Source of the DNA: Blasia pusilla
Lineage: Eukaryota
Assembly (NCBI GenBank): GCA_050084515.1
Contig: CM114271.1
Span: forward strand, 28,768,001-28,832,000
DNA: 64,000 nt
Direction of reading: 5' to 3'
Position numbers and translations under genes: made by a program. Positions within the stretch are counted from its first letter, which is position 1. Each line of letters opens with the position of its first letter. The notes under the pieces are model-generated. The model made no database searches. It was not told where the DNA came from and saw only the letters and a program-made list of their open reading frames with translations. Of this stretch, positions 580 to 37,599 are shown piece after piece.

Positions 580-1096
580 AGAGCTTTGCAACCTGTGAAA
601 TTCTGATGGGTTGGAGAGAGATTTGTTTTTTTGAGCCTTGTTTGCGAGGCGCGATAAGAGGAGAGCAAGAGAGTAAGAGCGGAGAGAGGAAGAGAGGAAA
701 GAGGAAACTACCTTCAACCCAAAGAGATATTTTTTTTAAGAGAGTTTCCTGTGATTTGGAGAGAATTTCCGTTGGGTTGAAGAGAGGAAACTTTTTGTGT
801 GAATTTTTTTGCACTTTTCTTCTTAGTAAATGGTAAGTGGTAAATGGTGCTTAGGCACTCCCACAAATTTTTTTTTCCTCTTCCATATTTTGGCAACCTG
901 TCTCAATCCGACGGGTTGCAACTTGCACAAAATTTTAAAACCTGAAAAATCATTGGAATCATAAATGTGGAACAAATCACTTTTTCCATCCAAGATCTGG
1001 AAAAATTCTATCATTTTCCCTTGGCTGAATAGAGTTCAAGCTCAAAGTGAAGGTTCTCGCAAATGAAAGTGCAATCTAAGACCTCATTTTGCATCC

Positions 1097-2640
1097 TCAA
1101 AGTGGTTTGTTTAAAATACTTCGCACTTTTTTTAGGGACAGAATTGGTTGGTGGATTCCTACTTCTACCTCTGACTCTCTTAAAACTACAAGCAACACAT
1201 AGTACATGTGCTTACATGGGAAATACCTTTCCCCACTTGTCTCTCTTTGGACAAAGTCATCACATGAACATGTGAGAAAGCAACAGATGTGCACCACATA
1301 CACCCCTTTGACACTTGAATTTACAATGTTGTTCCTGACCCAATACATCCTTCCTATTCCATTGCCACTCTAAATGTCTTTTGTGGCTATGATTTCCATG
1401 TTTTCCTCCCGAGCTGATGCGATTCGCTTTGCTCTCTCCACCGTTGGCCTATACATTATGTTTCTTTTCACCTCATTTCTAGACTCAAACAAAAATAGTG
1501 GATTGAGATCATCCACCTTCTTCGGGTACATGTTGACATCAATCTTGGTGAATCCAAAATCCAAAGGTCTCTGTAATGCGAACATGCTCCGAACTGCCTT
1601 CGTCTATGAGTCTGAAACCGGCACTTGTAAGATTGTCCACTTCGTCCTAAGTGCAATTCGTACCTGCAGCAATGGGCCAAATCGTGGGGATATTCCCTGG
1701 AGCTCCAATGGCATCCGGATAAGACTTTTGGATTGCGCAGGATTTATTTGGGCAGAAGAAGTACTTCAATTGATCCTCGGTCCTAGTGAAACGGTCAAAG
1801 GTTTTGAGCCCCTAGAAGCCAGACAATTATCGTCCAGTCCTTGTACAGTTCCTATTTAGGAAAGTGCCGCATGCTCTCCTAATGCCATCAGATCCTCCCT
1901 TGCAAGTGGATCCACGTCCAGGGTTGCTTCGAGATATATGCCACCTTTTGAGGTTGCAATCCACCTCAATTATCGGAATCCCATACTGTTAAACTACCCC
2001 AGAGACCTGATGTTGCGAACTTCCAACAACATAGGGCTTTTGAAATAAAACATTCGTTGATTTTGGAGAAGTTACTTCTACTAGAATTTGGGAGCAATCC
2101 GGGGTCCTCGAATGCATGGGGGGTATAATGTCTTCATCCAAATCAATCACTGGGTTCATTCCTCGATGTTGCCTCTTCACTTGCCTGAAGTCAAGATACT
2201 TATATGGTCTCCACGAGTCTCGCTCGGATTGCTCTACCACCATCTGTATGCAACGTCTTGAAACACGCCCACGAATATCCCCACCAATATGGACATTTTG
2301 CTCGAGGGGAGTTCCTGCTACGTACCGATTGAAGGCTTCCACATAGGGTTTCTCATCACTAGATCTCAAAGCCGCTCTGACATAGAGCTCGTAAATCGAA
2401 GGTGCCTTTCCTTTAGTTGTGCCTTTTGTGAGGAAGATATGGGATGTTGCAAACTATAGCGTTGCCCTTGCCTAGTCTTGTTGGCATGCCTCCACAAGTG
2501 AAATTCTTTGGCATGCTTGTGACGACCTTTAGGAGGAATGAACACTCTCTGCTCAACTTGTGTTGGGGCAGAGGGCATTTTCATGAATGTTCAATCCCTG
2601 CAACGACGGAAATGTGAGAAGGGAACGAAAATAGCTCTAT
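1097..2640 (-). pseudogene. MULE transposase C-terminal exon with SWIM zinc finger (disrupted)
   Basis: ORF 1097-1348 has TCSCDDF...PCKHMYYV (SWIM CxC-x(n)-CxH). Homologous to 9900-11401(+); contains stops and frameshifts. Confidence 0.75.
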
Positions 2641-3164
2641 AAGTGAAGAAAAAAGAAACTTGTCGGAACCCGACGGGTTGCAAGTGGGAGGCATCCCATT
2701 AATGACTGTGTTATCCGTCAGATTCAGACGGGTTGCAAGGAACTTTGGCCACTCAGGGCCGGAAGATCCAAGTGCAAGTCATCAGAATATGACGGGTAGC
2801 ACATGGATTTTCCAGCCTCCAACTTGAAACAGGTTGCAAGTCGGAGGCATCCCTGGAATGTCCCAAGAACCTCCTACTGCAACCCGTCAAAATCGGACGG
2901 GTTGTGAGAAGCAGGCCGTTCAAGTCTGGAAAATCCTTGTGCAACCTGTCGGATTCCGTTGGCTTGCAAGAAGTGTCCACACATGAAGGTTTGCAATTTG
3001 TCAGAATTCGACGGATTCTAGTTAACTTGCACTGATGCAACGTGTCTGGGTGCGAGAAGTTGAAGACATCCCCAACTTTTCTGAATGCGAGGAGTCGGAA
3101 ACGGCCAGCACATCGCCGTCGGAAGGACAATTCGATCCAACCGTCAGCCCAACGGCTCAAAAAG

Positions 3165-3172
3165 TATAAATA
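3165..3172 (+). promoter_or_regulatory. TATA box of cargo gene (copy A)
   Basis: TATAAATA conserved at the equivalent position in copy C (16173-16180), upstream of the shared ATG. Confidence 0.55.
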
Positions 3173-3434
3173 GGGGAGAAATCGCTCATTTCCGGTTTTT
3201 CATTTCGCGATCTCAATTGCTCTCCCACGCGCTGACCAGATACCAAGGGGCACTTTACACGATGACTCATCGCGAGACGATCACAAGAGGATACGAGCGA
3301 ACGATCGCGAGACGGTTCGAGCGAAAAATCGTGAGACGATTCGAGCTACCCATCAAGGCGACTCATCTCCACATCAGCAAGGCGACTCATCAAGGGATTC
3401 ATCGTTCACATAGGTGGAGGCATTTCTGGGAAAA

Positions 3435-6400
3435 ATGACGAGGAAAAAATCTCAAGCAAACAAGGCTGGGAGCTTCACTCCCAAGTCCATGAGGACTCCC
3501 GCGTCACCATCTCCAGGGCCTCGTTCGGCCAATGAGATAAGGCAGCAAGAAATCGAGGAGCGGGAAAGGGAAGCGGGGATGCACAAGCAAGAGATTCTTG
3601 CAAAACGTGTATAGGAGGTGCTTGAAAAACAGAACGCAGAGGCAGAGGCGTCGCAGGCCTTGAAGAAAAGGGTCACCGACGAAAACCGAGAAAAGAAGCA
3701 TCTAGACGCGTCGGTGAGGAGAGCAGAATTGGCTAAAGCTCGGAGGGAAAAAGCAATAGCCATTGAAGAAAGCCCTGCCCGTCCAACCAAAAGTGTTGAG
3801 ATGCGGGAAATGGCCCCGATGAAGTCCGGGGACACAATCAATATACCCGAAATGGCCAAAGTTCAAGTCACGGACGATGAGGTCATGAGGACCGCCAGCG
3901 TGGAGATGGTGGACATCGCTGAAGAAGCAGGAGAGCAATCATCCTTGTCTCTAAGCCCGGCAGAAGAAATCGACCTCTATCGGATCGCAGTATCGGTGGA
4001 CTTGCCATTTCTTTGTCTCGAAGCGGTTGGATTGGTGGCCAAGACACCGATCCAATCTTCGAGCGGGTAAGAGAGGATCTGTGTTTTTTGAATTATGTGA
4101 AGGTCCATGTTGCAATTCATTGGCAATTCAATGTAGCTTATTGATCTTGTCCCCGTTGTGACAGGTGGTAAAGCAGATGGCATTGATGGAGGGCCACAAC
4201 GCCTCGAGAATTCCACTATGCCGATTACGGACAATGGAGAACGTCTGCGAAATTCAGTCTAACAAGGATATTGCAAAGCTCAAACAATCGGTGGCGATAG
4301 CATCCTACGTCGACAACTTCCCTCCGTTCTATGTTCAGCCTTACAATGACCATGGAACCCAAGCGCTGGTTACGGAGGAGGACTTGGAATCGCTTGACAC
4401 ATTTTGGAGGATGAGAGATCAGGAATTCAGAAGGGCGATAGGGGGGACGGAATTCAGGTGGATGAGGAACCTGTATTTCTTCATCTGGGATGGAAATCAC
4501 AGGTTCATGGCGTGGACAAAGTTTGCAGAGGAGCGCTCAAACTCCTTGGAGGCATATTTTTGCATGAAGGCAATGGTGCTTCATCCATACCCTCATCACA
4601 TGGCAATGGTGGAGATGGCCATGCATGCCATGAACACGTAAGTTTCTTCTTGCTGCAAACCGTCGGACTCCGACAAGTTGTTTGAGTCGCCACTATTTTT
4701 GGGATGTTTTTGGCCAAAAGCAACTCGTCGGACTCTGACGAGTTGCTCGATTAATCATTGGTTTAGGATGTTTTTGGCCGAAAGCAACTCGTCGGAGTCC
4801 GACGAGTTGTTCGACTGACCATAGGTTTAGGATGTTTTTGGCCCAAAGTAACTCGTCGGAGTCCGACGAGTTGCCCGACTGGCCGCATTTTTTGGATGTT
4901 TTTTGAAGAAAGCAACTCGTCGGAGTCCGACGGGTTGCTTGACTCGAAGCTGTTTTTGGAGGTTTTTTTATGTTTATGGCTGAAAGCAACTCGTCAGAGT
5001 CCGACAGGTTGCATTTGGAAGTTGGGAGCTACATTTTTGGCATCAAATTGCAGCTTTCATTGAAATTGCGCAACCTGTCAGACTCTGACGGGTTGATTTG
5101 TTCACTTTTCTCGTGGTAACCACTATGTAAATACGGACTATCTGACAATCCGTCGGAGTCCGACGGGTTGAAACTAGGCAATCACAAATCTGAATGCAAT
5201 CCGTCGGACTCCGATGGGTTGCAAAATTTAGCTCGTTGCTACAATCCGACCTTGAGCTATGACGACCTGTCGGAGTTTGACGGGTTGCAAGAACCCATGT
5301 ACCTTACAAAATTTCTTATATTGAGTTTGGATGTGCAGGATTGTATAGGAGGGGAATGTCACCCACCACTCGATCCAGGATTGAGATCGGATGAAGAAAG
5401 TGCTCACGACGCACCCGGCAGAGTACAAGGGGTTCTTGGGCGACGCCCTTGTAAATGAGATGCTGGCAAAGGGTGCACAAATCAAAAAGAAGACTTGGGC
5501 AAATAAATTTATTTCCCAAGATGCAGCCGTCACAATCCTTTGTTGGTCGAAGATACAGGCCGCCAAGAAGAGCGTTGCATTGGAACTAGAGCGGAGGGAG
5601 AAAGTGTCTGTGTCTGAGCGTGCAAAATTCATCCAAGCTACAGTATCTGCAGCTACAAAGTACACGGCAAGCAAGATCAAGCGCTACATTGCCATTTTCA
5701 ACCCCGAACTTGAACCTGATTTCTACAAGGAGCTGAAGGCGATAATCAAGCGCCAGCGGAAAAGGGATGAAGATCCGCAAGGTCGGATTGGGGAGAAAGT
5801 GTCTCTCGATCGCGTGCATCGATTTGCCTTGTCTGGAATAAGCGAATTTAGGAGGGCACAGAGGCCCAAAAGAGGATGGCACACCATCCTCCGGGTATCT
5901 CTGATCCAGTGATCACCTATTGGCTCCGCAAATGGTCGTTCTGGGACGCGTTGCGGCTTATCGGAAAGTCCATGCTCGACGGTCTCCAAGCGGAGCTGAA
6001 AAGAATAGAGCCACTTCCAGAGGAAGAAAACCTAGAGAGTGCTGATGATTTTGAACTTTGGCTCGATGACATCCGGGACAAGCCCATAAAAAACCCAGGT
6101 TTTAGGACGATGTTCAAGGAACGCATCCTCCCTCAAGCAGACCTTGACGAAGAAATCGAGGCGATAAAAAGGGATTTCGCAAAGAAGAAGCAAGATCTTG
6201 ATGAGAAGCGGCCGTCGATTCGACTAAGAGCGCCCAACGCATGGTGTTCGGTACCTCGTCCATTGTAAGAATGCAGTGCGTGGCAAAAATACCGGCGACT
6301 TTTTTGCAAATTATGGGCTTCTCCGCCTGATGGAGAGACATTTTCCATGTACGACACGTAGATGGCTCAGAGCATGTCCGATTGGGAGGTGGATAATTGC

Positions 6401-7118
6401 CCGATTTGGCTGGACTTCAACGACCCTGAGGACATAACCGAGAAAGATCTACGCCTACTTTATGATGCAATGGCGGCAGGTAGGGACGACATCCCCAATT
6501 TTGTGCAGCCTGAAGACTTTTTCGAAGGAGATGCGGAAGAGCAAGCCCTCAAGACAGTGGAGTTGGCTTCCAAAGTGCACGCAGCCAAAGACAAATCTAG
6601 AGCGGGTCTCAAAGGCAAGGCGAAGGGATCGAAGAATTCCGAGGCCGAGTCTTCCCAAAGAGAGGCTGAAGATTCAAGGCGATAGCCGGAATCATCCGGG
6701 CAAGCGGGGAGAGAGGGTCGGACCAGGTCCTCCGCAAAAAGAACCCCACCAAAGTCTGAGGTCATACAGACCCCAACAAGCCGACCGCAGACTCGGGAGA
6801 AGCGGAAGTGAGAGGCGCCAAGGTTGTCCCAAGGAGCAGACCAGGATGTGGAATACAGTCCATCATCCTTGGGAAGACATAGAGAAACAACGACCCGGAC
6901 AAGCGTCATCCTTCACTTCACGAATCTACTAGATGAGCTGAAAAGTTTCAGTTCCCAAGCGTCGACACCCGCCATCGAGAAATTGACAACGCTGGGACGG
7001 AAGCTTCAACGAAATGGGCACGCTCCCTGGATGGTCTATGGGGTGGTCGGAGAGGTGGCGGTGGATCTCTTGATCGCTGATTTGCCCTCGGAGTTGCGCT
7101 TGTGGGACGAGAATCCGT
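3435..7118 (+). pseudogene. ParB/Srx-like domain + amino-methyltransferase cargo gene, copy A (exons about 3435-4066, 4137-4637, 5339-7118; 3'-truncated)
   Basis: Charged coiled-coil N-terminus, then IQSNKDIAKLKQS...FFIWDGNHRFMAW (ParB/Srx DGxHR motif). Ends just after VDLLIADLPS (MTase motif-IV position). Introns lie at the same positions in copy C. Confidence 0.7.
4655..5290. repeat. Intronic array of the 27-bp palindrome GCAACTCGTCGGAGTCCGACGAGTTGC (about 64-bp period)
   Basis: Copies near 4720, 4783, 4848, 4912 and 4986 plus further degenerate ones; homologous array at 17735-18280. Confidence 0.9.
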
Positions 7119-7570
7119 TATTTCTAACTACCTAGATCTATGGTTCTCTTAGCTTTTCCTACGATCCCTGTGAATCCGCGGTACAAAACTGTTCTAACTA
7201 CCAATTTGATACAAAGGGTCGCGCCCTTTCCTAGTTTAACTGTTCTAACATGTGTCGCTTGAAATCACAGTCCTTCTTAGCTTCGCTTCGCTGGACTTCA
7301 TGAGGACAAAGTACTCCATGCTTCGTTCTTATTTCCGGTGCTTCATGCTTCGTTAAGTTTCGTTCTGAGTCTTGAGACTTTGTTATTGCGTTTTCCTCTC
7401 CTCTAAGGCAAATCCTTGATCTTCCATCTCTCTGCCTTGTCCCAGGAGCTTCGTGATTCACTTATTCTTCTTCATAATAATAAATAATCATAATCAAAAT
7501 CATAATATACAAGAGTCTTTGTTGAATAAAAAGATATATTCTTCAAGAGTTCAAAATTGTGGGTATCACA
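7119..7570 (-). mobile_element. LTR retrotransposon remnant: about 364-bp LTR (7570->7207, TGTGATA...TGTATCA) with downstream TGG-starting PBS-like sequence
   Basis: Minus strand reads tgtgatacc...tgtatca aat tggtagttagaac. It interrupts the transposase at 7570/7571. Confidence 0.55.
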
Positions 7571-10500
7571 TCATCGATGGTGCAGGCTTCAACAAACTAG
7601 TGCTTCAATTCCAGATGGTCCTTGGATTGTTTCTCGCCGCCAATGCGTTGGAGCCGTGGAGTGTAGAAGTCCAGCATGCTCGTATCTAGAGCGCAATGGG
7701 TGAGTCAATACGTCGCAATTCCCCCCTAAGAATGCAGAAACTCCATATGAGGTCGGTGCGACCATACCGCCGGGAGGCCCTCGATGTCCTCATTGTCAGA
7801 CATCCCCTTTTGGCGTTGGAGCGTGTCTTGCATACAAATTTTTCATTGTCCACCACTTCAATTCTACGTCAGAGTACACAAGGCTGGCAGTTCATGTTGG
7901 CTCCCACATTCATCCTGTTACCGGTGCAATTTAGAGACACATCAAGGAGGATTTGGCAAAGAAAGTGTCCGAGGTATATAGAAACTCTCCGCGATCAACG
8001 CCTAGAGTGATCAAGTTAACAACAACATCACAAATTAGTGAAAAACTGCTTGGAATCCCTGGGCAGGGGGAGATCACGGATGCTGAGGAGAAACAACTCT
8101 CGGAAAATCTCGCATTTCTCTCTGATCTTGAATGCGTCCAGAATTTGTTGCATCAAATACAGGTACTCAATGGAAAGACGGTCGAAATGGATGCCATTGC
8201 TAGAATCAAGGCCAACTCCACATTTGTATTTATTTAGAGATGCCAGTTCATGGGCTAGGGAGGCGAAGGATCCAGGGCTTATGTCTTCAAAATGTCAACG
8301 ACAGGGCCATCGAGTGGCCTCGATCTTATAGATCGAATGAGGGAAGGGGAAGATCTTTATGGCAGCTGGGTAAGCTTTGATATTTGCTACAGAGTGTTGA
8401 ATGGATGGTTGACCATGGGTGCTCACGTTTATAACCATGTGGAGAAGGGACTCATAACTATATTTGTCTGTGAGATAAAAGCAGAAGACGTTGGCAGTTT
8501 GAAGATATGTCGGTTACTCTTATTGGAGGTGGTGAAGGAAAAAAAAAGGCCACCTCCAGAAATTTATGGATTCATGGCGGACAATGCACAACCTGGGTGG
8601 ATTGCTATCAGGGAAGTGTTCTGGAGTGGACAGTTTCAACGAGAGAAGGAAAGGTCAGATGCTTTCCATTGGCAACAATCTGTGACCCGGTACACCAAAT
8701 CTTGCATCAAGGAGAATAAGAGGACAGAGCATGTCACTCTACTCCAATGCTGCAAGGACAGAAAAACCTTGAATGAGGCCATGGAGTGCCAAGAAGAGGA
8801 GGAAGCATGCGATTGAGGGGAAGTACAAAAAGTTGTGCTCTTGGCTCAGTTGGTGGACAGTACGAATGAGACTTCATGCGGCAGGTGAGTTCAGTTGTTC
8901 GTCATGTTGAGCTCATGCTGAGAATTTTTTGAAAAGTTGCTGCTCAAGTTGAGAAGCATCGGCACTTTAGGGATTTCAAACCAAAGAAACCAAACAACCG
9001 GCCAGATGCAACGGCTTGCCTAAGTGTGCAACCCGTCCGAAACCGACGGGTTGCCTGAGTGTGCAACGAGTCGGAAACTGACGGGTTGCATCAAGAATGT
9101 TTGCGACATGATGCACGAGGAATATTTGTGCAACCCGTCAGAACCCGACTGGTTGCATGAGTGTGCAACCTGTCGAATCCCCACGGGTTGCAAGTTGCAT
9201 GTATACAAGGTCTGCAAATAGTTCGACCAAGATGGGTTGCAAGCCGCAAGGCTGCGAGTTAACTCGGTCTGCTTACCGTCGGATTCCAACAAGTTGCATC
9301 TATCTGCAACCTGTGGGATTCTGACTAGCTGCATCTGTATGCGACTCCTCACATTCAGACACGTTGCGGCTGTCTCCAAGTCGCATCCAGACACGTTGCA
9401 TCAGTTCAAGTTAACTGGAACCCGTCGAATTCTAATAGTTGCAAAGCCTCGTGTGTGGACACTTCTTGCAAGCCAACGGAATCCGACAAGTTGCACAAGG
9501 ATTTTTGAGACCGGACCGGCATGCTTCTCACAACTCGTCCGATTCCCACGGGTTGAAGTAGTAGGTTCCTGGGTGCTAGGTTGCAATAAAAGGTTATTGG
9601 GACATTCCAGGGATGTCTCCGACTTGCAACCTGTTTCAAGTCAGAGGCTGGAAAATCTCTGTGCAATTCATCGGATTTCGATGACTTGCACTGGGATCTT
9701 CCAGCCCAGAGTGGCCAAAGTTACTTGCAACCCGTCTGAACCCTACAGGTTGCAGTAGGTGGTTCCTGGGTGTTGCAACACGTCAAAAATCGACGGGTCG
9801 CACAGTCATTCATGGGATGCCTCCGACTTGCAACCCGTTTGGTTTCGACAGGTAGCTTATTTCTTTGCTCATAGAGCTATTTTTGGTCCCTTCCCACATT
9901 GCCGTCGTTACAGGGATTGAACATTCATGAAAATGCCCTCTGCCCCAACACAAGTGGAGAAGAAAGTGTTCATTCCTCTTGGAGGTTGTCACAAGCATGC
10001 CAAAGAATTTCACTTGTGGAGGCATGCCAACAAGACCAGGCAAGAGAAATGCTATAATCTGTAGCATCCCATATCTTCCTCAAAAAAGGCATAACAAAAG
10101 GAAGGGGGCCTTCGATTTACGAGCTCTATATCGGGGCAACCGTGAGATCTGGTGATGAGAAACTCTATTTGGAAACCTTCAATCGGTGCGTAACAGGAAC
10201 TCCCCTCGAGCAAGATGTACACATTGGTGGGGATATTTGTGGGAGTGTTTCAAGATGTCCCATACAGATGGTGGTAGAGCAGCCCGAGCGAGACTCGTGG
10301 AGATCAGATAAGTATATTGACTTTAGGCAAGTGAAGAGGCAGCATCGAGGAACGAACCCGATGATTGATTTGGATGAAGAAATTACGCCACCCAGGTATT
10401 CGGAGACCCCAGATTGCTCCCACATCCGTGATGCAATAACTTCTCCAAAATCAGTGAAATATTTTATTTCAAAAGCCCTCCGTTGCTGGAAGTTCGCAAC

Positions 10501-11401
10501 ATCTGATCGCTAGGGTGGTTCAACAGTATGGAATTCTGGTCATTGAGGTGGATTGCAACCTCAAAAGGTGGCATATATCTCGGAGCAACTTGTAGGGTAG
10601 GATCTGATGGCATTAGGAGAGCATGCGGCAATTTCCTACATAAGAACTATACAATGACTAGACGACCACTGCCTGGATTTTGGGGACTCAAAACCTTTGA
10701 TCGTTTCACAAGGACGGGGGATCAATTGAAGTACTTCTTCTGCCCAAATGAATCCTGCGCTTTCCGAAAGTCTTATTCGGCTGCCATTGGAGCTCCAGGG
10801 AATACCCCCCACGATTTGGCCCATTTCCGCAGTTACGAATTGCACTCAAGACAAAGTGGAAAATCTTACAAGTGTCGGTTTCAGACTCGTAGACGGAGGA
10901 AGTTCGGAGCATGTTCGCATTATAGAGACCTTCGCATTTCGTATTCAACCCAAGATTGATGTCAACATGTACCCGAAGAAGGTGGATGATCTCAATCCAC
11001 TATTTTTGTTTGAGTCTAGAAATGGGATGAAGAGAAACAGAATGTGTAGGCCAACGATGGAGAGAGCAAAGCGAATCGCATCAGCTCCGGAGGCAAACAT
11101 GGAAATCATGGCCACAAAAGATGTCATGCATGGCAATGGAATAGGAAGGATGTATTGGGTCAGGAACAACATTGAAAATTCAAGTGTCACAGGGGTGTAT
11201 GTGGTGCACATGTGTTGCTTTCCCACATGTTCCTATGATGACTTTGTCTGAAGAGAGACAAGTGGGAAAAAGTATTTCCCTTGTAAGCATATGTACTATG
11301 TGTTGCTTGTAGTTTTAAGAGAGTCGGAGGTAGGAGTAGGAATCCACCAACCAATTCTGTCCCTCAAAGAAGTGTGAAGTATTTTAAACAAACCACTTTG
11401 A
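7571..11401 (+). pseudogene. MULE transposase: GCM-like Zn domain, DDE core, palindrome-filled intron (from about 8885), C-terminal SWIM
   Basis: WVSFDICYRV and GFMADNAQPGWIAIREVF...DAFHWQQS (MULE catalytic Asp residues and CxxH-position motif). Donor GCAG|GTGAGT at about 8885. SWIM (FPTCSYDDF...CKHMYY) at about 11220-11300. Confidence 0.8.
9020..9850. repeat. Palindrome cluster in the transposase intron
   Basis: Many degenerate TGCAACCCGTC..GACGGGTTGCA copies at irregular spacing; mirrored at 2660-3030 and 12800-13095. Confidence 0.85.
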
Positions 11402-11808
11402 GGATGCAAAATGAGGTCTTAGATTGTACTTTCATTTTCCAGAACCTTAACTTTGAGCTTGAACTCTATTCAGCCCACGGCAAATGATAGATTCTTCCTA
11501 GACCTTGGATGGAAAAAGTGATTTGTTCCACATTTATGATTCCACTGATTTTTCAGTTTTTTAAATTTTGTGCAAATTGCAACCCGTCAGATTCAGATTG
11601 GTTGCCAAAATATGGAAGAGGAAAAAAATTTGTGGGAGTGCCTAAGCACTGAAAACAAAAGTGCAACAAATTTCACAAAAAAGTTTCCTCTCTTCAACCC
11701 AACGGAAACTCTCTTCAAATCACACGAAACTCTCTTCAAAAAAAAGTATCTCTTTGGGTTGAAGGTAGTTTCTTCTCTCCTCTCTTCCTCTCCTCTTATC
11801 GCTCCTCG

Positions 11809-12590: not shown

Positions 12591-12595
12591 GTTCT

Positions 12596-20278: not shown

Positions 20279-20280
20279 AA

Positions 20281-26460: not shown

Positions 26461-29400
26461 GGTATGGCCCAAGCGTCGACTTTGGACTATGTCGTGGGTC
26501 TTCCACCCCTTGTAATGAGCTCGATGGCTAGGGGACGGTAGAGGCATCGGTGGGGCAAGGAGAGTAGTATTTTGCATCCTTGGAGTAAATGGGATGTAAT
26601 GGATGGGCATGTGGAGTTGGTTGCTCATGCTGGTGGAGGAGTTATTTGCTCAGATGATGGTGTAGCTAAGGGTGTATCATCTTGTGAGGGGATTGCGTAG
26701 CAGCCAATGGCATCGTCCTCTCCCTCTAGTGTGCCAATGGAGGAGACTTGGGAGCCATTACTTGGGCCCAAGCTTACGGGGGAGGTGAGAAACGACGCTG
26801 CCACGGTTCCTACGTGCTTATAGGAGTTGTTTTGCCTTTAGCATGAAAGAGTTGGGTTCTCTGGTTGGACCCGGTATACGGATTGATTTGGCTAGTGATA
26901 CGCCAATCTTCCGTCGTCCCTACCGATGTAGTGATATGGAGAGGACTTGATTGAGTAGGGCGTTGGATCTTTTGGAGGTGGATTAATGGAGTTGTTGCAT
27001 GGAGAGTATGCATCGCCCTTTGTCATGCTGCTAAAAAGGATATGCATGGCAACTACACGGATAGGCGGATGTGTGGAGATTACCGTCCTATCAATCGGCA
27101 AACCAAGGCGATAGGTATGCCATGCCTACACCGAGGAGATCTTTGATGTGGTGGGCGGCAAAGATTTTCAGTACTTTGGATCTTGGCGAATACCATCAAT
27201 TGCCGATTCGGAGAGTGACAAGGCCAAGACAACATTTTGGGGTGTCAACTCTCATGGCAAGGATTGTTTGTACCGGTGGAAATTCTTACCCTTTGGGTTG
27301 AAGAATGCACTGCCGAGTTTCAAAGAGTGATGGACGGGATCCTAGCGGGGTTGGATTTTGTTCGGTGTTACATTGATGATATCTTGGTGTTGAGAACACG
27401 GTGGAGGAGCATCGATACATTTGCAGATGGTGTTTGAGCGGTTGAAAGCTCATGGTCTACGTTGCATCCAGGAAAGTGTAAGTTCTTCCATGAGGATGTT
27501 GAGTACTTGGGTCATGTGATCTATCCGGTGGTTTGGGAGTTCAGCAAGCAAAGGTGGAGGCTATTGCACTTATTCGCGTCGATAGATGTGAGTAGAGTTC
27601 GAGCATTCATGGGATTGGCGAACTACTATCGGAGGTATGTGAAGGGATTTAGTGCTATGGCAAAGCCTTTGAACCAATTGCTGAAATCAGATCAAGAGTG
27701 GCACTGGGGAGATGATTAGGAGAGAGCTTTTTGGAGCTTAAGGCCAGTTGGTGGCGGCGCCTATCTTGAGGAGACCTATCGAGGGCGCCCATTTCGATTT
27801 AACCGATTGGAGTAGGTTGGGACTTGGAGCGGTGTTGACACAACATGATGATGAGCACATGGAGTTTGTGGTGGCCTATGCAAGTCGTTCGAATAATGCA
27901 AATGAGTCGCGCTATAGTTCATATGAGGGAGAGTGCTTGGCAAGAGTGTGGGTTGTGGCACACTTTAGGTGTTACTTGTTTGGCACACAATTTACCCTTG
28001 TTCATGATCACCGGCCCGCTCAAGTGGTTGATGGAGTCGGACAAGCTTACTGGGGAAGCTTGCACGGTGGGCTCTTATCTTACAGAGTATGACTTCCAGG
28101 TGGTACATAGACCTGGAGTTGCCAACCTTGATGCTGATGGGTTGAGTAGGAACTCATGTACTAGCCAAGAGGATACAACTAGGGCTAGATGGCATGGCGA
28201 GGTTGATGAGGAGATGGTGCCAGGTTGGCATGCATCCGCCTTTTTATGTTGGTTAGGGGTGGACTCTAGTATGGAGGACCACATGATATCTTATTCTAGT
28301 CGAGGGTAGATGGCACCTTCTCAGATCCTAAGGTTGGAGATGGTGGTACGGATCAGCTTGATATTCATGATGATGCGTTGGTGTTGGAGTTCCTACAGAC
28401 CAGTAGGGTGCTAGGCATAGTGAGTGCCAAGGAGCGAGACCGTGTTCTTCAACGTGCTAAGAGGTATCGATTGGAGGAAACACATATTCTCCGCGTGTGG
28501 GAGGATGGTAGAGTACGAGTAGTGCCACATTTGGCTCAGAGAGAGCGCATTGTGCGACATGCCCATGAGGAGTTGGGACATTTTGGGGTAAAGCGTACTT
28601 ATAGCTTACTCCTTGGTGAGTATTGGTGGCGTGGCATGCATACTCAGGTGCAGCAGTTGGTGTCACGTTGTATGGTTTGTGACCGGGTGAGGGCATCATT
28701 TAATGCCCCTACACCACAATTACACCCCTTGCCTATTATGGGGTTGGGTTACCGTTGGAGTGTGGACTTTGCGGGACGTTATCGTTGATTCATACAACAT
28801 CATCGATATGTGTTGGTGATGGTGGAGCACTTTTCCAAGTGGATTGAGTTGGTGGCATTACGGACAAGGCAAGTGAGGGAATGGCGTATCGTTTCGGATA
28901 GAGTGCTTAGTCATTTTGGTGCACCAGTGAAGTCTTGACCGACCAGGGTATAGAGTTTGAGGTGAGTTTGGTCTTGTGTGACAAGGCGTTGATTGATCAT
29001 CGGACCACGTCTCGAGATCATCCAGGCGGATGGTTTGGCTGGCGTGTGGTTGAGGCGGTGAAGAGGGCATTGCGCAAGTATGGCCTCTGAAGGGCATCTT
29101 GAGACAGGATATTCGGTTGCCATGGTTAGCCATGGGGTATAGGTTCGATCGCCAAGCATCCTTGGCTTCCTTCTCACCTTATTTTTCATTATACGGCCGA
29201 GATCCGGACTTGCCGGCAAGCAAAGCAATTGTCGGGAGTCTAGTGAGGTGGTGAACCTTGATGACCCAGAGATGTGGATGAGGGTGTGTTCTCGGCGGGC
29301 GGAGCTCTTTCGGAGAGTTATGCCATGACCTTTGAGAATCTTGCCATTGCTCAACATAGGGATACGTTGCGGTATGCAACCATTCGGGTGGAGGTTATCG

Positions 29401-29646
29401 ACCATCGATTCAGTAGGTTCCATGTGGGGGACTATGTCTATTTTAGCAGATTGCCCGACAACGTTGGATGTGGCCAGCCGCACTATTTTACGAAAGTGCG
29501 TGAGGTGTTAGCTTCTAGAGTTCTCATGTTGGAGGGTCGTGATGGAGTTGTTTGGAAGGACCATGTGCGTAATTGTGCGCCATGTCATCTTCCAAATGTG
29601 GATGGTCTTATTGACCCAAGCTTAGCCATGATACGTGCTAGCTTGA

Positions 29647-29781
29647 GGTGCATGTTGTGTGGGTGCTTGTAATGGTATGTTGGTGTGTGATCGGTGTTCT
29701 AGGGGTTGGCACATGATGTGTTTGACTCACGTTTGGATGTTGTTCCTCTTTGGAAGGTGGGTTTGTCCTCGATGTACTTAG
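29647..29781 (+). pseudogene. PHD finger at the integrase C-terminus
   Basis: CMLCG...MLVCDRCSRGWHMMCL...WVCPRC* (C4HC3) across frameshifts. Confidence 0.8.
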
Positions 29782-32700
29782 AGAGGTAGATGACTTGATC
29801 TTTGCATGATATGGATTACAGAGATGTGCGACTAACGATGGCGCAACCTAGCACCCGGGATTCGGGCACCCAAGAAGGTGTATAGCATGTAGTAGATGTA
29901 TAGGGCTACTTGGGGGAGTTAGAGGACCTAACCTTGATTAGGGGGGGTTGTGGTACACTTGCGTTTGTGGATACTCGTCTATGTTATGTATGTATGTGCG
30001 TATGGTATGTCGGCGATGTATGTTGTATGGCGATGAGGATTCGTGACGACAAGCTTGTCATGACCATACGGATTATGTCGTAGAGTATGGTGTCTTTGGT
30101 AGAGGCCATTCCTTGTGTAGGACCGTAGTGGCTTGGTAGAGATGTGGTTCCATACATAGGGTTGGGGTTACTCACTTGGGGTGACTTTCCTAGTAGGGCC
30201 CGCTCTTAGGTTGAGGATATAAGGTGGCTTGCCCTCAAAGAAACGATCAGTTCTTTGAGTTTAGCCTGCTATGCGTTGGGAGTTAGCCTTGGTAGTGAGT
30301 AGAGCTCTTGGCTATGGTGTTTCCCGCAAGCTTCGACCTGGATTCTCCCATCGTGGAGTGGGTTTGGCTCGTTTGTATGTGATTGTAAACGTGTTTTATG
30401 ATAGTAAGTCTTTCACGGATTTCAGTTGTGGTACACTTGCGTTTGTGGATACTCTCGTCTATGTTATGTATGTATGTGCATATGGTATGTCAGTGATGTA
30501 TGTTGTATGACGATGTGGATTCGCATGACAGGGCAACTCTAGACTTGAGGAAAACCGAGTTATTCCTTGAGGCGGCAGATGAGAATTTGGAGGACAAGCT
30601 TTTCATAATGTTGGCGGACAAGAATGAAGAAGGAGATGTCAGCACTAATTGGAAGAAAGTGGAAGAAGTTGTTGCTATCCTCACAAAGCAAAGTCGAAGT
30701 AGAGGTAGAACCACAATATTTAAGTCGGAGGTACCAATTTCAAATCCATTGCCTAAGCCCATGCCAGCAAAGCTTGAAGATTCTACCATTGATGAGTTGG
30801 TGAAAGGTTTGAGAGAGTTGAGAGTAGAAATGGCTGAGCTTAAACTTGATAGGAATCCTAGTGTTGGTGCTCCTTCAATAAGTAAGAACTTTGTGAGAAG
30901 ATGTATATGGTGTGATAGTGTTGAGCATCAACGTCGAGAATATGAGGAATTTTCAGAAGCTCTTAGAAATGGAATAGTAAACTTCAAAGATGGGAAGATT
31001 CATTCAACGCAGACTGGTATGCCGTTGAATACCAACTTTGGTAGAGGAGGTATGAAAGGCTTAGTGAGAAGTCAAGTAGGAGTTGCCACTACGACATTAG
31101 ATTCTTATACCTTTTCAGTAAAAATAGAAGCGCCTATTGTATCTGTAGCTAAAAGTGAATCATTACAATTTCCTCGAGAAGTGATGATACAAGGGGCAGA
31201 GACTATCCGTCATCTGACTGGATGGGATGATCCAGTGGAAGTTGGGTGTGTTAAAGCATACCTAGCACAAGAGAAACATGTGAGTTGGCAAGATGCTAGT
31301 GTGGAGGAGAAGAGGAGACGCGACAATGATGGTGCTGATTTTGAGGAAGATGCAAGAAGAGCGAGGACTGTAAGAAGGAAAGGGCAACCAGAGGCGCAAC
31401 CGTCAAGAGAAGAAGGGCCTTCTACATCTGAATTTATGATGGATTCTCAAATGAAAGAAGGTGGAATGAAGGAGAACGAATTGAGGTCTCCTCAGAAGAC
31501 CAAGGGTAAGACTCCTACATACAAGTTTGCGATCGATATCGAGACAAGCACCTAATTTAAAGGAGATTCTTGAGGAGAGGATTTTGGATGCGAAAATAGA
31601 GTTTTCTTTGAGGGAAGTCTTGGGCATAGCCAAACGTGACTTTCATGAGTTGATCATAGATGTGATCAAAAGGAAGAGGCAGATGACTACAGATATGGTG
31701 ATGGTGAGAGCTTTGGATACTGACATCACAGAAGAAGAAGATGAAGAGCTTTGCCAAGTGTTTGGACAAAACCTTGACTTACGCGGAAAAGAGGCGAGAG
31801 TAGGAGAAGCCTTGAGAGAACAAGGTGAAGACAGGCATAATGGTGGACACTATTCTCGATCATATTGGGCGCGTGCAACGACGGAGGCTAGAGTTCGACT
31901 TGGCTCTCTTTAAGAATCAGTTTTGGCTCTCGTTGATCATGGTTCAGAGATCAACATCATGTCGCGAAGTGTGTACGACAAAGGGATATGGCCAATTGAT
32001 ACAGGGCATGGATGGGTACTACGAGCGACTAACAACCAAAAAGGTGAACTCTATGGTGCTTGTCCATCCGTCAAAACTCGTATCGGAGATGTGTTGATTG
32101 AGCAAAATTTCTTTGTTCAGAATAGAGCTGCTTATCCTATGATTCTTGGGCAACCTTACATCACAGCATCTAGAATGGAGACCAAAGTCATGGATGATGG
32201 GTCTCATTATGCCCGTATTAGAAGTCAGGATGGAACAAGATCAGTTCAATTCCCTTCTTTGTCATTTGAGTAGGTCATGAAAGGAATAGAGAGAAGTTGA
32301 GAGATGGTCCTATGAAGGTAGAGAAAGAGTTTTCGGATTTTTAGTTAGCATTCCTATAGAGCGGGAATATGGGGGTGCAGAGAAAAGAAAGAGTCTTCCG
32401 CTAGTAGAGGGGGAAGAATCATATATGTTTAGGTGTGGGTTTTCTCAATGTTTTTCTTCGTGGTCTAGTAGATTCCAAATGATGAAAGAAATGAATGAAA
32501 AGAAAAGACGTTTTATGAAAAAAAAAGGAGGGTTTGTTAAAATGTGAGGGTGTTCTATTAGATGAAGAGTTCATTAGTGGGATGTATGAAGAAGAGGGTT
32601 TTGGAGATAGTCTTGAAGAGGTGTTTACCCAGATGAACATCGATTCGCTGGATACAAGTGTGATTACAATTCACTCGCGTGAGTTGCATGAAGAGATATC

Positions 32701-33182
32701 AAGGTTCATGGAAGGAGAAAATGAAAATGAATATATGGAGAAGGAAGCGGATGGGCATGGGTTTGAGTCTGACGAACATCCCATGGAGGCACAAGTGCAC
32801 ACAAAATACAAGACAGTGGCCCGGAAGGTGAAACCAATGGCTACTCAACTACCAGAGGGTTGTGGGAGACAAGTAGAACGTGCATCAATGGAGCCAAGTC
32901 TGCGGGATATCAAGAAGATAGGACATAAGTTCACAGAAGAGATGCTAGATCGTCTGCAAATCGGAGGGGGTGAGTTTCTCACAGAAATTGAAAGAAAATG
33001 CTTTCGGGAGATGTTAAGGAGACATGGTAAGGCTTTCTCTTTTACAACACAAGAAATTGGTTGTGTAGACACGAGTGTGGTGGCACCGATGGTAATTTTC
33101 ACAGTTCCACATGTGCCTTGGGATTTGAAACCCATACCAGTACCATGAGCTATGATTCCCAAGCTGATTGAGTTATTGAGTT

Positions 33183-35578
33183 CCGGAGGAAGCAAACCTG
33201 GAGAGTGCTGAAGATTTTGAACTTTGGCTGGATGACATGCGGGACGAGCCCATAAAAAACCCAAGTTTGAGGACGATGTTCAAGGATTGCATCCTCCCTC
33301 AGTCAGACCTTGATGAAGAAATAGAGGCAGAAAAAAGGGATTTCGCAAAGAAGAAGCGAGATCTTCAAGAGCAGGCGGCCGATGCATCTCGACTAAGAGC
33401 TGCCCAATGCATGGTGTTCAGGAACCTCGTCGATTGTAAGAATGCAGGTACATGGCAAAAAATACCGGCAGCCTGCAAATTGTGGGCTTCTCCACTGATG
33501 GAGAGACATTTTCCATGTACGACATGGGGATGGCTCAAAGCATGTCTGATTGGGAGGTGGAGAATTGCCCGATTTGGCTGGACTTCAACGACCCTGAGGA
33601 CATAACTGAGAAAGATCTACGCCTACTCTATGATGCAGTGGCGGCAGGTAGGGACGATATCCCCAATTTTGTGCAACCTAAAGACTTTTTCGAAGGAGAT
33701 GCGGAGGAGCAAGCCCTCGAGACAGCGGAGTTGGTGTCCAAGGTCATCACTGCCAAGGACAAATCTACAACGGGTCTCAAAGCCAAGGCGAGGGGATAGA
33801 AGAATTTCGAGGCCAAGTCTTCCCAAAAAGAGGTTGAAAATTCAAGGCGAGAGCCGGAATCATCCGGATGAGCGGGGAGAGAGGGTCGGACCAGGTCCTC
33901 CGCAAAAAAAACTCCACCAGAGTCTGAGGTCATAGAGACCCCAACAAGCCAACCGCAGACTCAAGAGAAGCAAAAGCGAGAGGCGCCAGGGTTTTCCCAA
34001 GGAGATGACCAGGATGTGGAATACACTCCATCATCCTTGAGAAGACATAGAGAAACAACGACCTAGACAAGCGTCATCCTTCACTGCACGAATCTTCAGG
34101 ATGAGCCGAAAAGTTTCAGTTCCCAAGCGTCGACATCCGCCATTGAAAAATTGACAACGTTGGGACGGAAACTTCAACAAAACGGCCACGCTCCCTGGAC
34201 GGTCCATGGGGAGATCGAAGAGGTGGCGGTGGATATCCTCGTCGCTGATTTGCCCTCGAGGTTGCGCTTGTGGGACGAGAATCCGTCCGACAGGGTCCCA
34301 GACTGGAATGTCCCTCTTTCTTATGACCGGATCGCGCTTCTGTTTTCCTTTGCAGACGCTTATCTTAGTGACAGGGGCTTTTTCTTAGTTTTGACTGGAG
34401 GGAGCGAGGACGAGCTCTTCAACCTCCAGTGCGTCAAGAGGTCCCTAAAGTGGAGGACGGCGCAATTGTGGATCATCAAGAACGAGTATCCACTCCGATC
34501 CGCGACAAGTCAAATTCGGGTAAGGGCTCTAAATTTGTATCCAAATTGTCTTTCTCCAATGGGTTGCATCTCTGCATACAACCCGTCGGATTGTTTGAGC
34601 TGGGTCTGTTTGCAATCCGTCTGAAAGTGACGGGTTGCAAATTTACCGCAAGTCTCCATTGGGTGAATGCAACCCGTCGGAACCCGACGGGTTGCAAGTG
34701 CTAATGCTTTTGCAATTTTCTAGAATGATGCAACCCGTCTGAAAGTGACGGGTTGCTCTAAACCAGAAACCTGTCGCCTTCCGATAGGTTGCTCATGGAC
34801 AAAAAAATCACAAGACACTTGTAAAACAACCTGTCGGACTCCGACAGGTTGCTCCAATGTTAGGATTATAAAGGAGTTCTTTGGGGACATGTTGCACATT
34901 ATGTCGCCATACTGAGAGTAGACGAGTGGCCAAGTAGCTCTTTGTTGTTGCTGACATTGTTTCCAACGTGCTTCTTTACAGATGGACCACTCCTATGTTT
35001 ACTGCTTTGTTCGGCCCGAGCAAAACTTCCAGGTGTTTAAGATCCTGGATCCTGTGTATCCATGCTCCGATGGGTACAACTTAGATAGTTTATACAATTC
35101 CCCCCTGGGAATTTACATGCAAGACGGTACCCCTTTACTTGGAGGAAGGGAAAAGTCACCAGCCCTGATGCAAACGCTCATCGAGCTCTGCTCAAGGCCG
35201 GGTGACTTAGTGCTCGACTTAGTGGGCCTTTCAGGGGCGAGTATCAGAGGCGCCTGGTAGAGTGGCAGGAACATTCTCTGCCTTGAGGGAAGGCAGCAAC
35301 TGTTTGACCTTTGCAAGGAGGCAAAGGCAGATATTACGACATGCTAGTTGGGGCGTACAACTCTCCTCGGCCGAAAGCTCGGTTCGGACCCACCATTGGT
35401 AGTGACACCATCGTCATTTCCCACGATTCTGAAAATCGGGAGGGCAAGGCCGACAGTAATCTTGGAAGAGCTCTCGGATGATGACGAGTGAGTTCAAAGA
35501 ACTCAAGGACCCAGCTTGACTGCAGCGTTTGGAGTAGGGATTTATTTGATGACGAGGCAAAAGATTTCATAGAATAGA
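33183..35578 (+). pseudogene. Cargo gene copy C, 3' part: beta-class N4C/N6A DNA methyltransferase-like domain (intron 34520-34981)
   Basis: Motifs in beta-class order: VDILVADLPS (IV), LFSFADAYLSDRGFFLV, WIIK; then after a phase-0 GT-AG intron DHSYVYCF and REKSPALMQTLIELCSRPGDLVLDLVGLSGASIRGAW*SGRNILCLE (X-I-II). Confidence 0.75.
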
Positions 35579-35972
35579 TCAAATGTACAGTTCTGAGCTT
35601 CTTTCGGATGTAATAAAGGACAAGATTTTTTTGAACGATGATGATGTTTGTAAAAGTTTGCTGAATATCTTTTTTGGTCTTGTCGAATGTGATCGTCTAT
35701 GTACTCCGAGGACTTCTATTTTGCAACCCGCCGGATTTCCACGGCTTGCAACTTTTCACTTTGTGACCACTGCACCTTTTTAACCACTTCCAAGCAACCT
35801 GTCGGAATCCGACAAATTGGCTATGTGAGTGATCGGACTCTTTCGGACTCTTTAGAGGCATTCTGGCGGGCTTCTTCACTTTGGCACCTTCCCCTAGTAT
35901 CGTCAAACAAGGCGTACGCTTTTTCTCTTCTCTAAGACATGTTGGATTCCTACTACTTGTGGGATTGCCATC

Positions 35973-36260
35973 ATGGTATTTCCAAGGACGGAGCACATAT
36001 TGATACTGGATGGGTGTCACATTGCAGAGCGTAGAAGATATACTGCCGAGGAAGGCGGTGGGACTCAAATCAGGTTACATGGGACCGTTATGGTGTACCT
36101 AGGGGGGGGGCCAAGGCTCTCGAATTCGCCAACATTTTTTATCCCCGTCTACAATCGGCCAGAGGAGCCACTTGTATCCCAGGACACTCCTTTTGTACAG
36201 GAACCTAGGAGAGTTAGGAGTAGATTTGCAGATGACGAGGCTGAAGAAATCATAGACTAG
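35973..36260 (+). CDS. Small ORF of unknown function in the MULE right arm
   Basis: Homologous to 12031-12300; acidic end SRFADDEAEEII resembles the cargo-gene end (FDDEAKDFIE). Confidence 0.35.
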   Translation: MVFPRTEHILILDGCHIAERRRYTAEEGGGTQIRLHGTVMVYLGGGPRLSNSPTFFIPVYNRPEEPLVSQDTPFVQEPRRVRSRFADDEAEEIID

Positions 36261-37599
36261 ATCAAATGTAGATTTTCGAGATTCCTTTGGATGTAATAAA
36301 GGACGAGATTTTCACAACCGATAATGGTGTTTGTAAAAGTTTGCTGAATATTTTTTTTGGACTTGTGGATTGTGTTCTTCTAGCTATTTAGAATTACAAT
36401 TTTGCAACCCGTCGGATTCCGACGGGTTGCAACTTTTTAACCATTTCCAGGCAAGCTGTCGGATTCCGACAGGTTGGCTGCTTGAGTGATTAGACTCTTT
36501 TCCTTTGAGACCAACTTCTGAGGCATTGTGGCCGGCTTCTTCACTTTTGGCTCGTTCCCCTAGATTCGTCAAACCAATTGTAGGCTTCTTTTCTTGTCTA
36601 AGATGTGTAGGATTCTTACTACGTGTCGGATTGCAATTTCGGATTTCCAACCCGTTGGATTTTCGTGAGTGTAGGGTGGAATGGAATCACTTCTCAAAAT
36701 CTTTCCTTTCTTATGGTGAGCTTGCTTGCAAGAGGTGCAAGCCATCTGATTCCGACGGGTTGCAAGAGTTGCAACCTGTAAAATTCCGACGGGTTGGGAG
36801 GGGTGCAGCTTCTCGGTTTCTCAGATTTAGGATCTGAATGAAGGGACATCAGTTCCTCTTTACTCCAGACAGCTAACAATCTTTTGGTTCAATTATCGTC
36901 TCATGTGTTCACATTTCACAAAGTTGGTCTTGAGCAGACACAATTCATAACCAACAAAAAGTTGGTTATGAGGCAATTCAGGGGAGGCCATGATGCAGGA
37001 AACAATCCCTGCAAAAAGAGAGGTTGGCATCGTATCGATGCGCATCCGGGTGATCCTCCGACAAAAATACCCATGAGCACTATTTATTGTAGACCGAGAC
37101 AGGCAATGTTAAGAAACTTAGGCTCACACGGAGAGTGATGGAAAAATGTTTGTAGTGGTCTTATGATGTCTACTTTTTTTTCGCCCCTTGGAAAAAGGAG
37201 GTTTCTTTAGGCCCGAATGTGGACCACTACCTACTCTCTTCTAAAGATTTCATGAATTTGAAAGCAAACAAAAATTTCAAATATGTCAAAAAGTTTTGAA
37301 GAGAGAAGGTGGATTTGGCCCTTTTTTTTTAAGAGAGACTCTCCTCTCTTCCTCTCTTCCTCTCTTCCTCTCTTCCTCTCCTCTCTCCTGCCAGAATACC
37401 AGCCCCCGAGATTATAGACTAGAGTTTGTAGTTCAAGAAATCCAATGTAAATATCTGAATTGCAAATCGATTTCAATAAACAACTTGAAATGTGTTTTTC
37501 AAACTTTCAGAGCTCTACTCTTGAATGTTTTTTGCACTGTCGATTAGTTTCCTACAGACTGTAACTTGGGTTTTTCTTAATCCAAGATTTTTTGTTTAG

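Follow-up and report, generated by a model that had tools for sequence, protein, structure and literature searches.

A transposon and its accessory gene

Can a land-plant transposon encode a protein that recognises the element's own non-coding DNA? The question is raised by a 64,000-nucleotide stretch of the Blasia pusilla genome (contig CM114271.1, positions 28,768,001 to 28,832,000; hereafter the window), which contains decayed copies of one DNA transposon family. With regard to anatomy, we are confident that the family combines a transposase gene, an accessory (cargo) gene for a protein with a ParB-like and a methyltransferase-like domain, and arrays of a family-specific palindrome. By analogy with known systems, we tentatively propose that the accessory protein would bind the 27-bp palindromes as a dimer and act on copies of its own family, which we regard as possible rather than probable. 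The outcome would be protection of the element from silencing, as with VANC, or alternatively the organisation or bridging of element DNA, as with ParB. The methyltransferase-like domain would then be mainly an S-adenosylmethionine (SAM)- or DNA-binding module, not a canonical writer of N4-methylcytosine (4mC) or N6-methyladenine (6mA). For anatomy and mechanism combined, we lean slightly towards this explanation.

Self-comparison of the whole window by BLAST revealed that fragments of one repeat family make up positions 1-19005 and 33181-38600. At least five nested, decayed fragments were distinguished, with pairwise identities of 83-89%; an earlier note on this DNA had proposed that three partial copies reconstruct one element, and the partial copies were indeed found, in greater number. 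Joining the non-redundant parts gave a composite element of approximately 13 kb, no complete copy being present in the window. The layout is left end, minus-strand transposase, intergenic region, divergent intron-containing cargo gene and right end. Terminus comparison placed the start of the left terminus at 646 and the end of the right terminus at 37407, exactly the boundaries that the note had given. The left terminus of copy A begins GAGGCGCGATAAGAGG at 646, and the right terminus of copy C ends in CCTGCCAGAATACCAGCCCCC at 37407; across the family the terminal sequences are GAGG[A/C]GCGATAAGAGG... on the left and ...CCAGAATACCAGCCCCC on the right. Neither terminus is an inverted copy of the other, and only GA-rich subterminal tracts are common to both, which is compatible with the non-TIR subgroup of Mutator-like elements (MULEs), i.e., those without long terminal inverted repeats (TIRs). 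The note's assignment to the non-TIR MULEs agrees with this, the family being Mutator-like and lacking clear TIRs. The features of the family in the window are as follows (ORF, open reading frame; Srx, sulfiredoxin).

1-580, plus strand: fragment Z; tail of the cargo 3' exon at 1-170 (like 35154-35320) and right terminus at 394-586 (like 37215-37413)
646-3099, minus strand: copy A, left terminus and 3' part of the transposase (684-3099), with the SWIM-finger ORF at 1097-1369
3100-7118, plus strand: copy A, cargo gene; E/K-rich N-terminal ORF 3615-4070, ParB/Srx-fold exon 4162-4637, intron 4638-5338, middle-domain exons ~5339-6685, start of the methyltransferase-like domain 6812-7118; truncated after 7118
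4656-5287, no strand: palindrome array of copy A intron 1; 10 palindromes, with a 64-bp period across 4661-4967; counterpart in copy B at 17738-18276
7571-~11800, plus strand: copy D (inverted); transposase zinc-finger and DDE region 7572-8768, palindrome-bearing stretch 9029-9855, decayed SWIM remnant near 11200, left terminus near 11800
11811-12470, plus strand: fragment E, right subterminal piece, like 35356-36432 by self-BLAST
12603-14353, minus strand: copy B, 5' part of the transposase, with WRKY/GCM-type Cys/His pattern and DDE region
14354-16108, no strand: copy B, intergenic region (1.75 kb) between the divergent transposase and cargo genes; 10 palindromes, with a 67-bp-period array at 15394-16022
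16109-19005, plus strand: copy B, 5' part of the cargo gene; ParB-like exon 17194-17719, intron 17720-18327, next exon from 18328
18481-18912, plus strand: 432-bp non-autonomous derivative with both element termini, within the copy B cargo exon
33181-35320, plus strand: copy C, cargo gene, 3' part; exons of the middle domain, then the methyltransferase-like exon (34067-34519), an intron holding 4 palindromes (34520-34981) and an exon running from 34982 past 35260
35321-37407, plus strand: copy C, right subterminal region; 5 palindromes, ending at the right terminus

In copy A, an internal deletion joins the transposase part to the cargo gene (3100-7118, plus strand). Retroelement sequence (19006-33180) intervenes between copies B and C, and between the two some 440 bp of the cargo gene are lacking; copies B and C may be one original copy that was split by retroelements. 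The copies in the window are dead relics.

The two domains belong to one predicted protein

The accessory protein is predicted to be approximately 1100-1200 residues long and to consist of an N-terminal ParB/sulfiredoxin-fold domain, a helical middle region, a low-complexity linker and a C-terminal methyltransferase-like domain. The ORF at 4162-4641 of copy A, which carries the motif WDGNHR, was used in a HMMER scan of 1.84 billion representatives. The scan returned 131 proteins at an E value of 1e-3 or lower, the best of them at 4.8e-20 and 32% identity; of 30 homologues examined further, the liverwort Riccia sorocarpa accounts for 14 and Adiantum ferns for 4. Full-length homologues of the cargo protein are multicopy in the liverwort, and the N-terminal domain occurs in ferns as well.

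Liverwort proteins of 1191 and 1207 amino acids are collinear with the exons in the window, running from the ParB-like domain through the middle region to the methyltransferase-like domain, and this full-length architecture (about 1200 amino acids) has persisted in both this genome and the liverwort, at 27-32% identity. Five consecutive pairs of liverwort locus tags link a ParB-like with a methyltransferase-like gene model, consecutive tags presumably denoting adjacent genes. Because of the collinear homologues and these five pairs, we assign both domains to one predicted protein, as the earlier note had done for the gene in the window; the identity of each domain is supported by the fold search and the PF01555 profiles described below.

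The predicted first intron of copy A (4638-5338) corresponds to that of copy B (17720-18327), with GT-AG borders and a continuity of frame that reproduces the liverwort sequence. A further predicted intron in copy C (34520-34981) likewise has GT-AG borders and continues the frame as in the liverwort homologue. All three cargo copies are decayed: copy A has in-frame stops right behind the acceptor of the first intron, copy B reads WDGNHS for WDGNHR (R to S) and carries the 432-bp insertion in a cargo exon, and conserved sequence of copy C is interrupted by an in-frame stop (35258-35260).

Directly upstream of the first cargo ORF of copies A and B lies a 24-bp tandem repeat of 3 to 4 units (3272-3346 and 16281-16385, respectively). 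Public databases list proteins of this family as 'hypothetical' or, for several of the liverwort homologues (P0132, P0134, P0135 and others), as 'Trimethylguanosine synthase'; the latter name looks like an annotation artefact, as Pfam points to PF01555.

Several searches for further relatives were negative. Neither a known family nor a helix-turn-helix was identified in the helical middle region, Pfam found no families on 10 long homologues, and a protein search with the motif IV exon scored none of 837 candidates. Two scans of metagenome contigs for related loci found patterns and no confirmed relative, and tblastn of the 1207-amino-acid homologue gave no match in 50,697 phage records.

The N-terminal domain has a predicted ParB/sulfiredoxin fold

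WDGNHR lies at 4486-4503 in copy A, and its counterpart WDGNHS is found at 17563-17580 in copy B. An AlphaFold2 model of the region 4162-4641, built on an alignment of 133 rows, reached a predicted local distance difference test (pLDDT) value of 91.5 and a predicted template modelling (TM) score of 0.85. When this model was compared with the PDB using Foldseek, 29 of the 32 rows listed were ParB, Noc, KorB or PadC proteins, sulfiredoxin, SbnI or free serine kinase. The best match was 7bnr_A (E = 0.033, probability 1.00, TM-score 0.44). In a viral fold library, the matches were ParB-like nuclease and ParB/Srx proteins, two of which bear methylase names. On the strength of the model, we accept a ParB/Srx fold for the product of the WDGNHR exon.

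Bacterial ParB proper has a GERRxRA CTP-binding box and an adjacent helix-turn-helix and binds parS. The DGNHR motif seen here we take to be nearer to the ParB-like nuclease/Srx/DndB type; among 30 members of the cargo family, Pfam gave one DndB match, at E = 0.066. The WDGNHR ORF was also considered as a bacterial-type ParB with a helix-turn-helix; this was rejected, as there was no supporting evidence and neither that domain nor the CTP box was shown. A profile of the full-length alignment matched only SHOC-2 in the PDB (E of at least 1.7), which we regard as spurious.

A family-specific palindrome recurs in non-coding DNA

Inspection of the element's non-coding DNA revealed many copies of a palindrome. 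The pattern CAACCCGTC-N7-GACGGGTTG, with up to 3 mismatches, gave 62 matches in the window compared with 0.00 expected from 100 shuffles, in line with the element-specific palindrome arrays that had been noted before. Fifty-six of the 62 lie inside 646-37407, and the 39.5 kb of unrelated retroelements contain none. Their consensus, GCAACCCGTCGGA-N-TCCGACGGGTTGC, is palindromic over 27 bp, and its centre is conserved too. Its density is approximately 2-6 per kb in the non-coding DNA of the element (the intergenic region, the introns of both genes and the subterminal parts), and the arrays have periods of 35, 64 or 67 bp. The palindromes are distributed as follows.

Cargo intron 1 of copy A: 10
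Cargo part of copy B: 10 (9 in the intron array, 1 within the 432-bp insertion)
Intergenic region of copy B: 10, with a 67-bp period
Intron inside the methyltransferase domain: 4
Transposase regions: 9 in copy D, 4 in copy B
Left part of copy A: 4
Right part of copy C: 5
Between fragment Z and copy A: 1
Just past 37407: 5

Deviations from the consensus, in copies across 589-38554, are mainly C-to-T and G-to-A changes at four CpG positions (for example, C to T in 20 of the 62 at one site). Such changes would be expected from deamination of methylated CpG, had these sites carried cytosine methylation in the germ line.

Evidence that the family has moved comes from the 432-bp insertion at 18481-18912, which is present in copy B and absent at the equivalent site of copy A (5485-5491). 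Its left and right ends are those of the large element, and an A-rich direct repeat (about 9-10 bp) lies on either side; this is the one insertion examined, and since it sits in an A-run, the exact length of the target-site duplication is ambiguous. A duplication of about 9-10 bp falls within the range of about 8-11 bp for Mutator/MULE target-site duplications. Shared termini together with a target duplication indicate that the family has been mobile. The derivative also holds subterminal TTGAAGAGAG repeats and one palindrome (18710-18734). The 15-bp motif TTGAAGAGAG(W)(Y)T(Y)C was matched 8 times, compared with 0.13 expected, and every match adjoins a left or right terminus; TTGAAGAGAG is thus a candidate transposase-binding site.

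The palindromes may be binding sites of the accessory protein, and we treat them as candidates for that role. The rival that survives best holds that they have nothing to do with this protein and are either transposase-binding repeats or hairpin minisatellites that propagate themselves in non-coding DNA. Subterminal repeats bound by the transposase are frequent among DNA transposons, the 432-bp derivative retains one palindrome, and the differing periods resemble local tandem amplification. Against this, most of the palindromes lie in introns and the intergenic region, well away from either terminus; TTGAAGAGAG, present in both subterminal regions, is the better candidate for a transposase site; and the centre of the palindrome is conserved, as in dimeric binding sites. 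We therefore regard this alternative as somewhat unlikely.

The C-terminal domain resembles beta-class amino-methyltransferases and has a variant motif IV

Pfam analysis of the last exon in the window gave a match to PF01555 (E = 0.0017, 18.8 bits, compared with a curated cut-off of 26.7). The liverwort homologues matched the same family with E values of 9.4e-6 to 5.2e-5 and 23.7-26.2 bits, just below the cut-off, and a precomputed PF01555 match was present in 4 of 26 of them. When the family profile was run against PDB sequences at E values up to 10, six of the seven matches were beta-class amino-methyltransferases (E 0.01-1.9): DpnA twice, CcrM, RsrI twice and one N4 enzyme (8s9m, sixth of the seven, E = 1.9). 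The alignment with CcrM spans both halves of the domain, with motif IV before motif I. This weak but consistent evidence suggests that the C-terminal domain was derived from beta-class N6/N4 amino-methyltransferases.

The order of motifs in the window is IV, target-recognition region, I. At the motif IV position, ADLPS is found at 7076-7090 in copy A and at 34244-34258 in copy C, ahead of LDLVGLSGAS at the motif I position (35213-35242); copy C also has EKSPALMQ at 35150-35173. The beta-class order proposed in the earlier note was thus borne out. The glycine-rich motif I is retained; it reads GDIVIDFAGGWGAT in the liverwort and, in the window, GDLVLDLVGLSGAS. We aligned DLPS with DPPY ourselves, guided by the pattern of strand-D-x-P-x, W, helix and RxL-G-strand and by the CcrM alignment, which starts just downstream.

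Further inspection revealed that motif IV reads D-[LM]-[PS]-[ST] instead of (D/N/S)PP(Y/F/W) in all 16 sequences compared (2 window copies and 14 liverwort proteins). The aromatic residue of motif IV stacks on the flipped base, and its replacement usually abolishes amino-methyltransferase catalysis; METTL14, for example, has an inactive EPPL motif. Loss of this residue argues against ordinary 4mC/6mA catalysis. The variant loop is conserved at overall identities of 24-30%, which speaks for its continued importance.

These observations bear on a second rival, in which the accessory protein would be catalytically active as a DNA amino-methyltransferase, writing 4mC or 6mA on the palindromes of the element, which contain CG and GA/TC steps. 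In its favour, the domain derives from PF01555 enzymes and retains motif I; the D and mostly the second P of motif IV are conserved at that low overall identity, which suggests selection on the loop; and phage ParB-methylase fusions are real enzymes, with two such proteins among the fold matches. The canonical (D/N/S)PP(Y/F/W), however, is found in 0 of 16 family sequences, with S or T at the aromatic position. The motif thus weakens the suggestion, made in the earlier note, of a 4mC/6mA writer. Such a writer is unlikely and its canonical form doubtful, and a pseudo-enzyme or DNA-binding role would be at least as likely.

The transposase is most like those of MULEs

Mutator-like is very probably the best classification of the element, because of the transposase ORF evidence (the protein-atlas match, the SWIM finger and the Cys/His pattern) and the target duplication. 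The DDE region is represented by ORFs at 8259-8816 (plus strand) and in the 13170-13708 region (minus strand). In a protein-atlas search, the ORF at 8259-8816 matched ZSWIM1-3_RNaseH-like/MULE clusters with a score of 0.96 and 176 of 256 features in common, and the best 10 family-carrying matches all agreed in family or clan. Three relatives of the transposase, with 45-48% identity, map to 7572-8768 and 14353-13170. Copy B has the motifs CPNCQASPFC (14010-14039), HVGSHTHP (13908-13931) and MADNTQPGW (13524-13550, in the DDE region). A WRKY/GCM-type Cys/His pattern, recognised at the level of pattern only, lies upstream of the DDE core in the window and in the three relatives.

A SWIM pattern, CSC-x19-CKH (CxCx19CxH), was found at 1253-1270 on the minus strand, the one regular-expression match among 9 frames scanned. 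Pfam scored SWIM (PF04434) on this ORF at E = 0.0029 and 17.5 bits, below the cut-off of 19.6; this was the sole subthreshold Pfam match for the transposase. A C-terminal SWIM finger together with N-terminal fingers of the WRKY/GCM1 type is common in MULEs, if not universal.

The element could also lie outside Mutator, in another DDE lineage (Plavaka/CACTA-like or KDZ-like) that had acquired an accessory cassette of the red-algal type. CACTA-type elements have 3-bp target duplications and end in CACTA. For such a lineage speaks the outcome of a Pfam search of 13 window ORFs and 3 homologues, in which no MULE or Transposase_mut domain was found. So does the experience with red-algal Plavaka elements, which were misclassified as MULEs through homology of their accessory genes, as reported in a preprint (10.1101/2025.02.11.637652). 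In the present case, however, it is the transposase ORF itself that matches the MULE/ZSWIM RNaseH-like clusters (0.96), the SWIM finger, the WRKY/GCM-type pattern and the duplication of about 9-10 bp point the same way, and these termini are unlike CACTA-type ends. Placement outside Mutator is therefore improbable.

Points that weigh against the proposal

Several results count against the reading of the family as a MULE with a self-recognising ParB-like/methyltransferase-like protein. On the ParB side, the Foldseek E value was never 0.001 or lower and the TM-scores were 0.36-0.47. The Pfam ParB families (ParBc/ParB_N) matched 0 of 30 cargo-family members. No PDB sequence match to the ParB-like domain was found, the sole profile match (eL24) being spurious. 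Because the sequence profiles fail, the ParB assignment rests on the predicted fold. Moreover, a ParB N-terminal domain alone is not a sequence-specific DNA binder. On the methyltransferase side, the Pfam matches are confined to positions 165-221 of the PF01555 profile, and the structure model of the domain was unusable (pLDDT 45.8); because the model failed, the fold assignment rests on weak, concordant profiles. Of the two domain matches that the earlier note had called for, then, the ParB one was recovered as a fold by Foldseek and missed by the Pfam profile, and the methyltransferase one was recovered, weakly, as PF01555.

The negative Pfam result for MULE and Transposase_mut belongs here as well. 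The transposase search gave 3 relatives, none of them from the liverwort that is rich in cargo homologues, and the pairing of cargo and transposase may not be universal. Finally, no intact copy of the element or of the cargo gene was found within the 64-kb window.

Relationship to known systems

The closest parallel is found in red algae, where giant Plavaka elements, and Mutator in Chondrus, carry the accessory genes PAG2 and PAG3 (10.1101/2025.02.11.637652). According to this preprint, PAG2 comprises PF01555 and SET domains and PAG3 a ParB-like domain (best hit 7BNR) with a 2-oxoglutarate (2OG)-oxygenase; tandem inverted-repeat arrays adjoin PAG3, and self-binding is proposed by its authors (10.1101/2025.02.11.637652). 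Like the present family, the red-algal system has a giant DDE transposon, a ParB-like domain that matches 7BNR, a PF01555 domain and internal inverted-repeat arrays, and the self-binding hypothesis is common to both. Compared at the level of domains, the two differ in that the ParB-like and PF01555 domains are on two genes in red algae and fused in one protein here, that SET and 2OG domains are present there and neither was detected here, and that here motif IV is degenerate and a liverwort and ferns supply the nearest named homologues. We conclude that the family is a new fused variant of a recently described kind of system.

The earlier note had known of no description of the system. This stands for land plants, for which no description of such an accessory system was found in the literature (lists of elements in supplements lay outside that search); it does not stand in general, since the red-algal system of the preprint (10.1101/2025.02.11.637652) is analogous. 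A 2026 review on gene capture by plant transposons (PMC13317346) does not mention 'ParB', 'methyltransferase' or 'methylase'. In the accessible part of a 2015 paper on eukaryotic adenine methyltransferases (PMC4738411), ParB-helix-turn-helix fusions are reported only in chlorophytes and chytrids, in a different (Dam-type) clade.

The VANDAL elements of Arabidopsis resemble the present family in being Mutator-like without clear TIRs and in having an accessory protein, VANC, that is proposed to recognise motifs amplified in the element's own non-coding DNA. To our knowledge, VANC has no ParB or methyltransferase domain, and the function of the cargo considered here is an inferred one. Phage and bacterial fusions of ParB-like nuclease and N6_N4 methylase also combine these two folds, with the ParB-like one at the N-terminal side; the protein described here differs in some 600 extra residues between the domains, eukaryotic introns, loss of DPPY and the absence of a sequence match in the 50,697 phage records. 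Marchantia DN4MT1 and bdelloid N4CMT share the eukaryotic beta-class PF01555 fold; they are host genes that keep the catalytic SPPY (TSPPY in DN4MT1), whereas the motif of the present family is altered and its gene transposon-borne.

That the cargo is a host or viral gene captured passively, in the manner of Pack-MULEs, and useless to the element is barely credible: MULEs often capture host fragments, as reviewed in PMC13317346, and every cargo copy in the window is a pseudogene, but an architecture of about 1200 amino acids kept between this genome and the liverwort, an N-terminal domain that extends to ferns and many copies per genome indicate a long-lived, element-borne gene rather than a one-off capture.

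Few transposon-encoded factors that recognise their own non-coding DNA are known, VANDAL/VANC being the classic example and the red-algal PAG system a recent proposal. The present family would bring to land plants the combination of ParB-like domain, PF01555-like domain and palindrome arrays, in a fused architecture that is new. It permits the question whether a methyltransferase fold whose catalytic loop is degenerate was repurposed, and it offers concrete reagents for tests, namely, the palindrome of 27 bp and liverwort proteins of full length, for example, the homologue of 1207 amino acids. If the domain is inactive, the result would chiefly be a well-defined new accessory-gene family for the annotation of bryophyte and fern transposons.

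A bolder and quite unlikely extension would see an old, transposon-borne self-recognition module across Archaeplastida, in red algae, liverworts, ferns and this genome. The ParB-like domain would load at palindromes, and the methyltransferase-derived domain with its D-L/M-P-S/T loop would deposit an unusual DNA mark or block 5-methylcytosine placed by the host on the element's own copies. If true, this would be a second, independent anti-silencing system like VANC and possibly a new catalytic variant of amino-methyltransferases.

Neighbouring sequence in the window

The sequence 37408-38622, directly beyond the right terminus, probably is a further fragment of a related element. It contains five palindromes and a 92-95-bp tandem repeat (37915-38213), and its end (38529-38622) resembles 36451-36546.

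Copia-type stretches at 39088-40771 and 60733-62421 are 90.5% identical to each other, and neither contains the element's palindromes; a reverse transcriptase domain, RVT_2, was found at 61748-62365 on the minus strand (E = 1.6e-55). A reverse transcriptase ORF of the RVT_1 type is located at 59639-60793.

The sequence between copies B and C (19006-33180) is retroelement sequence with a Gypsy-type gag (CCHC), a protease and an integrase (zinc-binding domain Integrase_H2C2 at 28300-28788, E = 6.9e-17). Repeats of 362-370 bp at 20841-21202 and 30058-30424 are 94.6% identical and may be parts of long terminal repeats. A second gag/protease-like stretch extends from 30490 to 33150, and GC skew is unusually high (0.22-0.30) over 20-34 kb.

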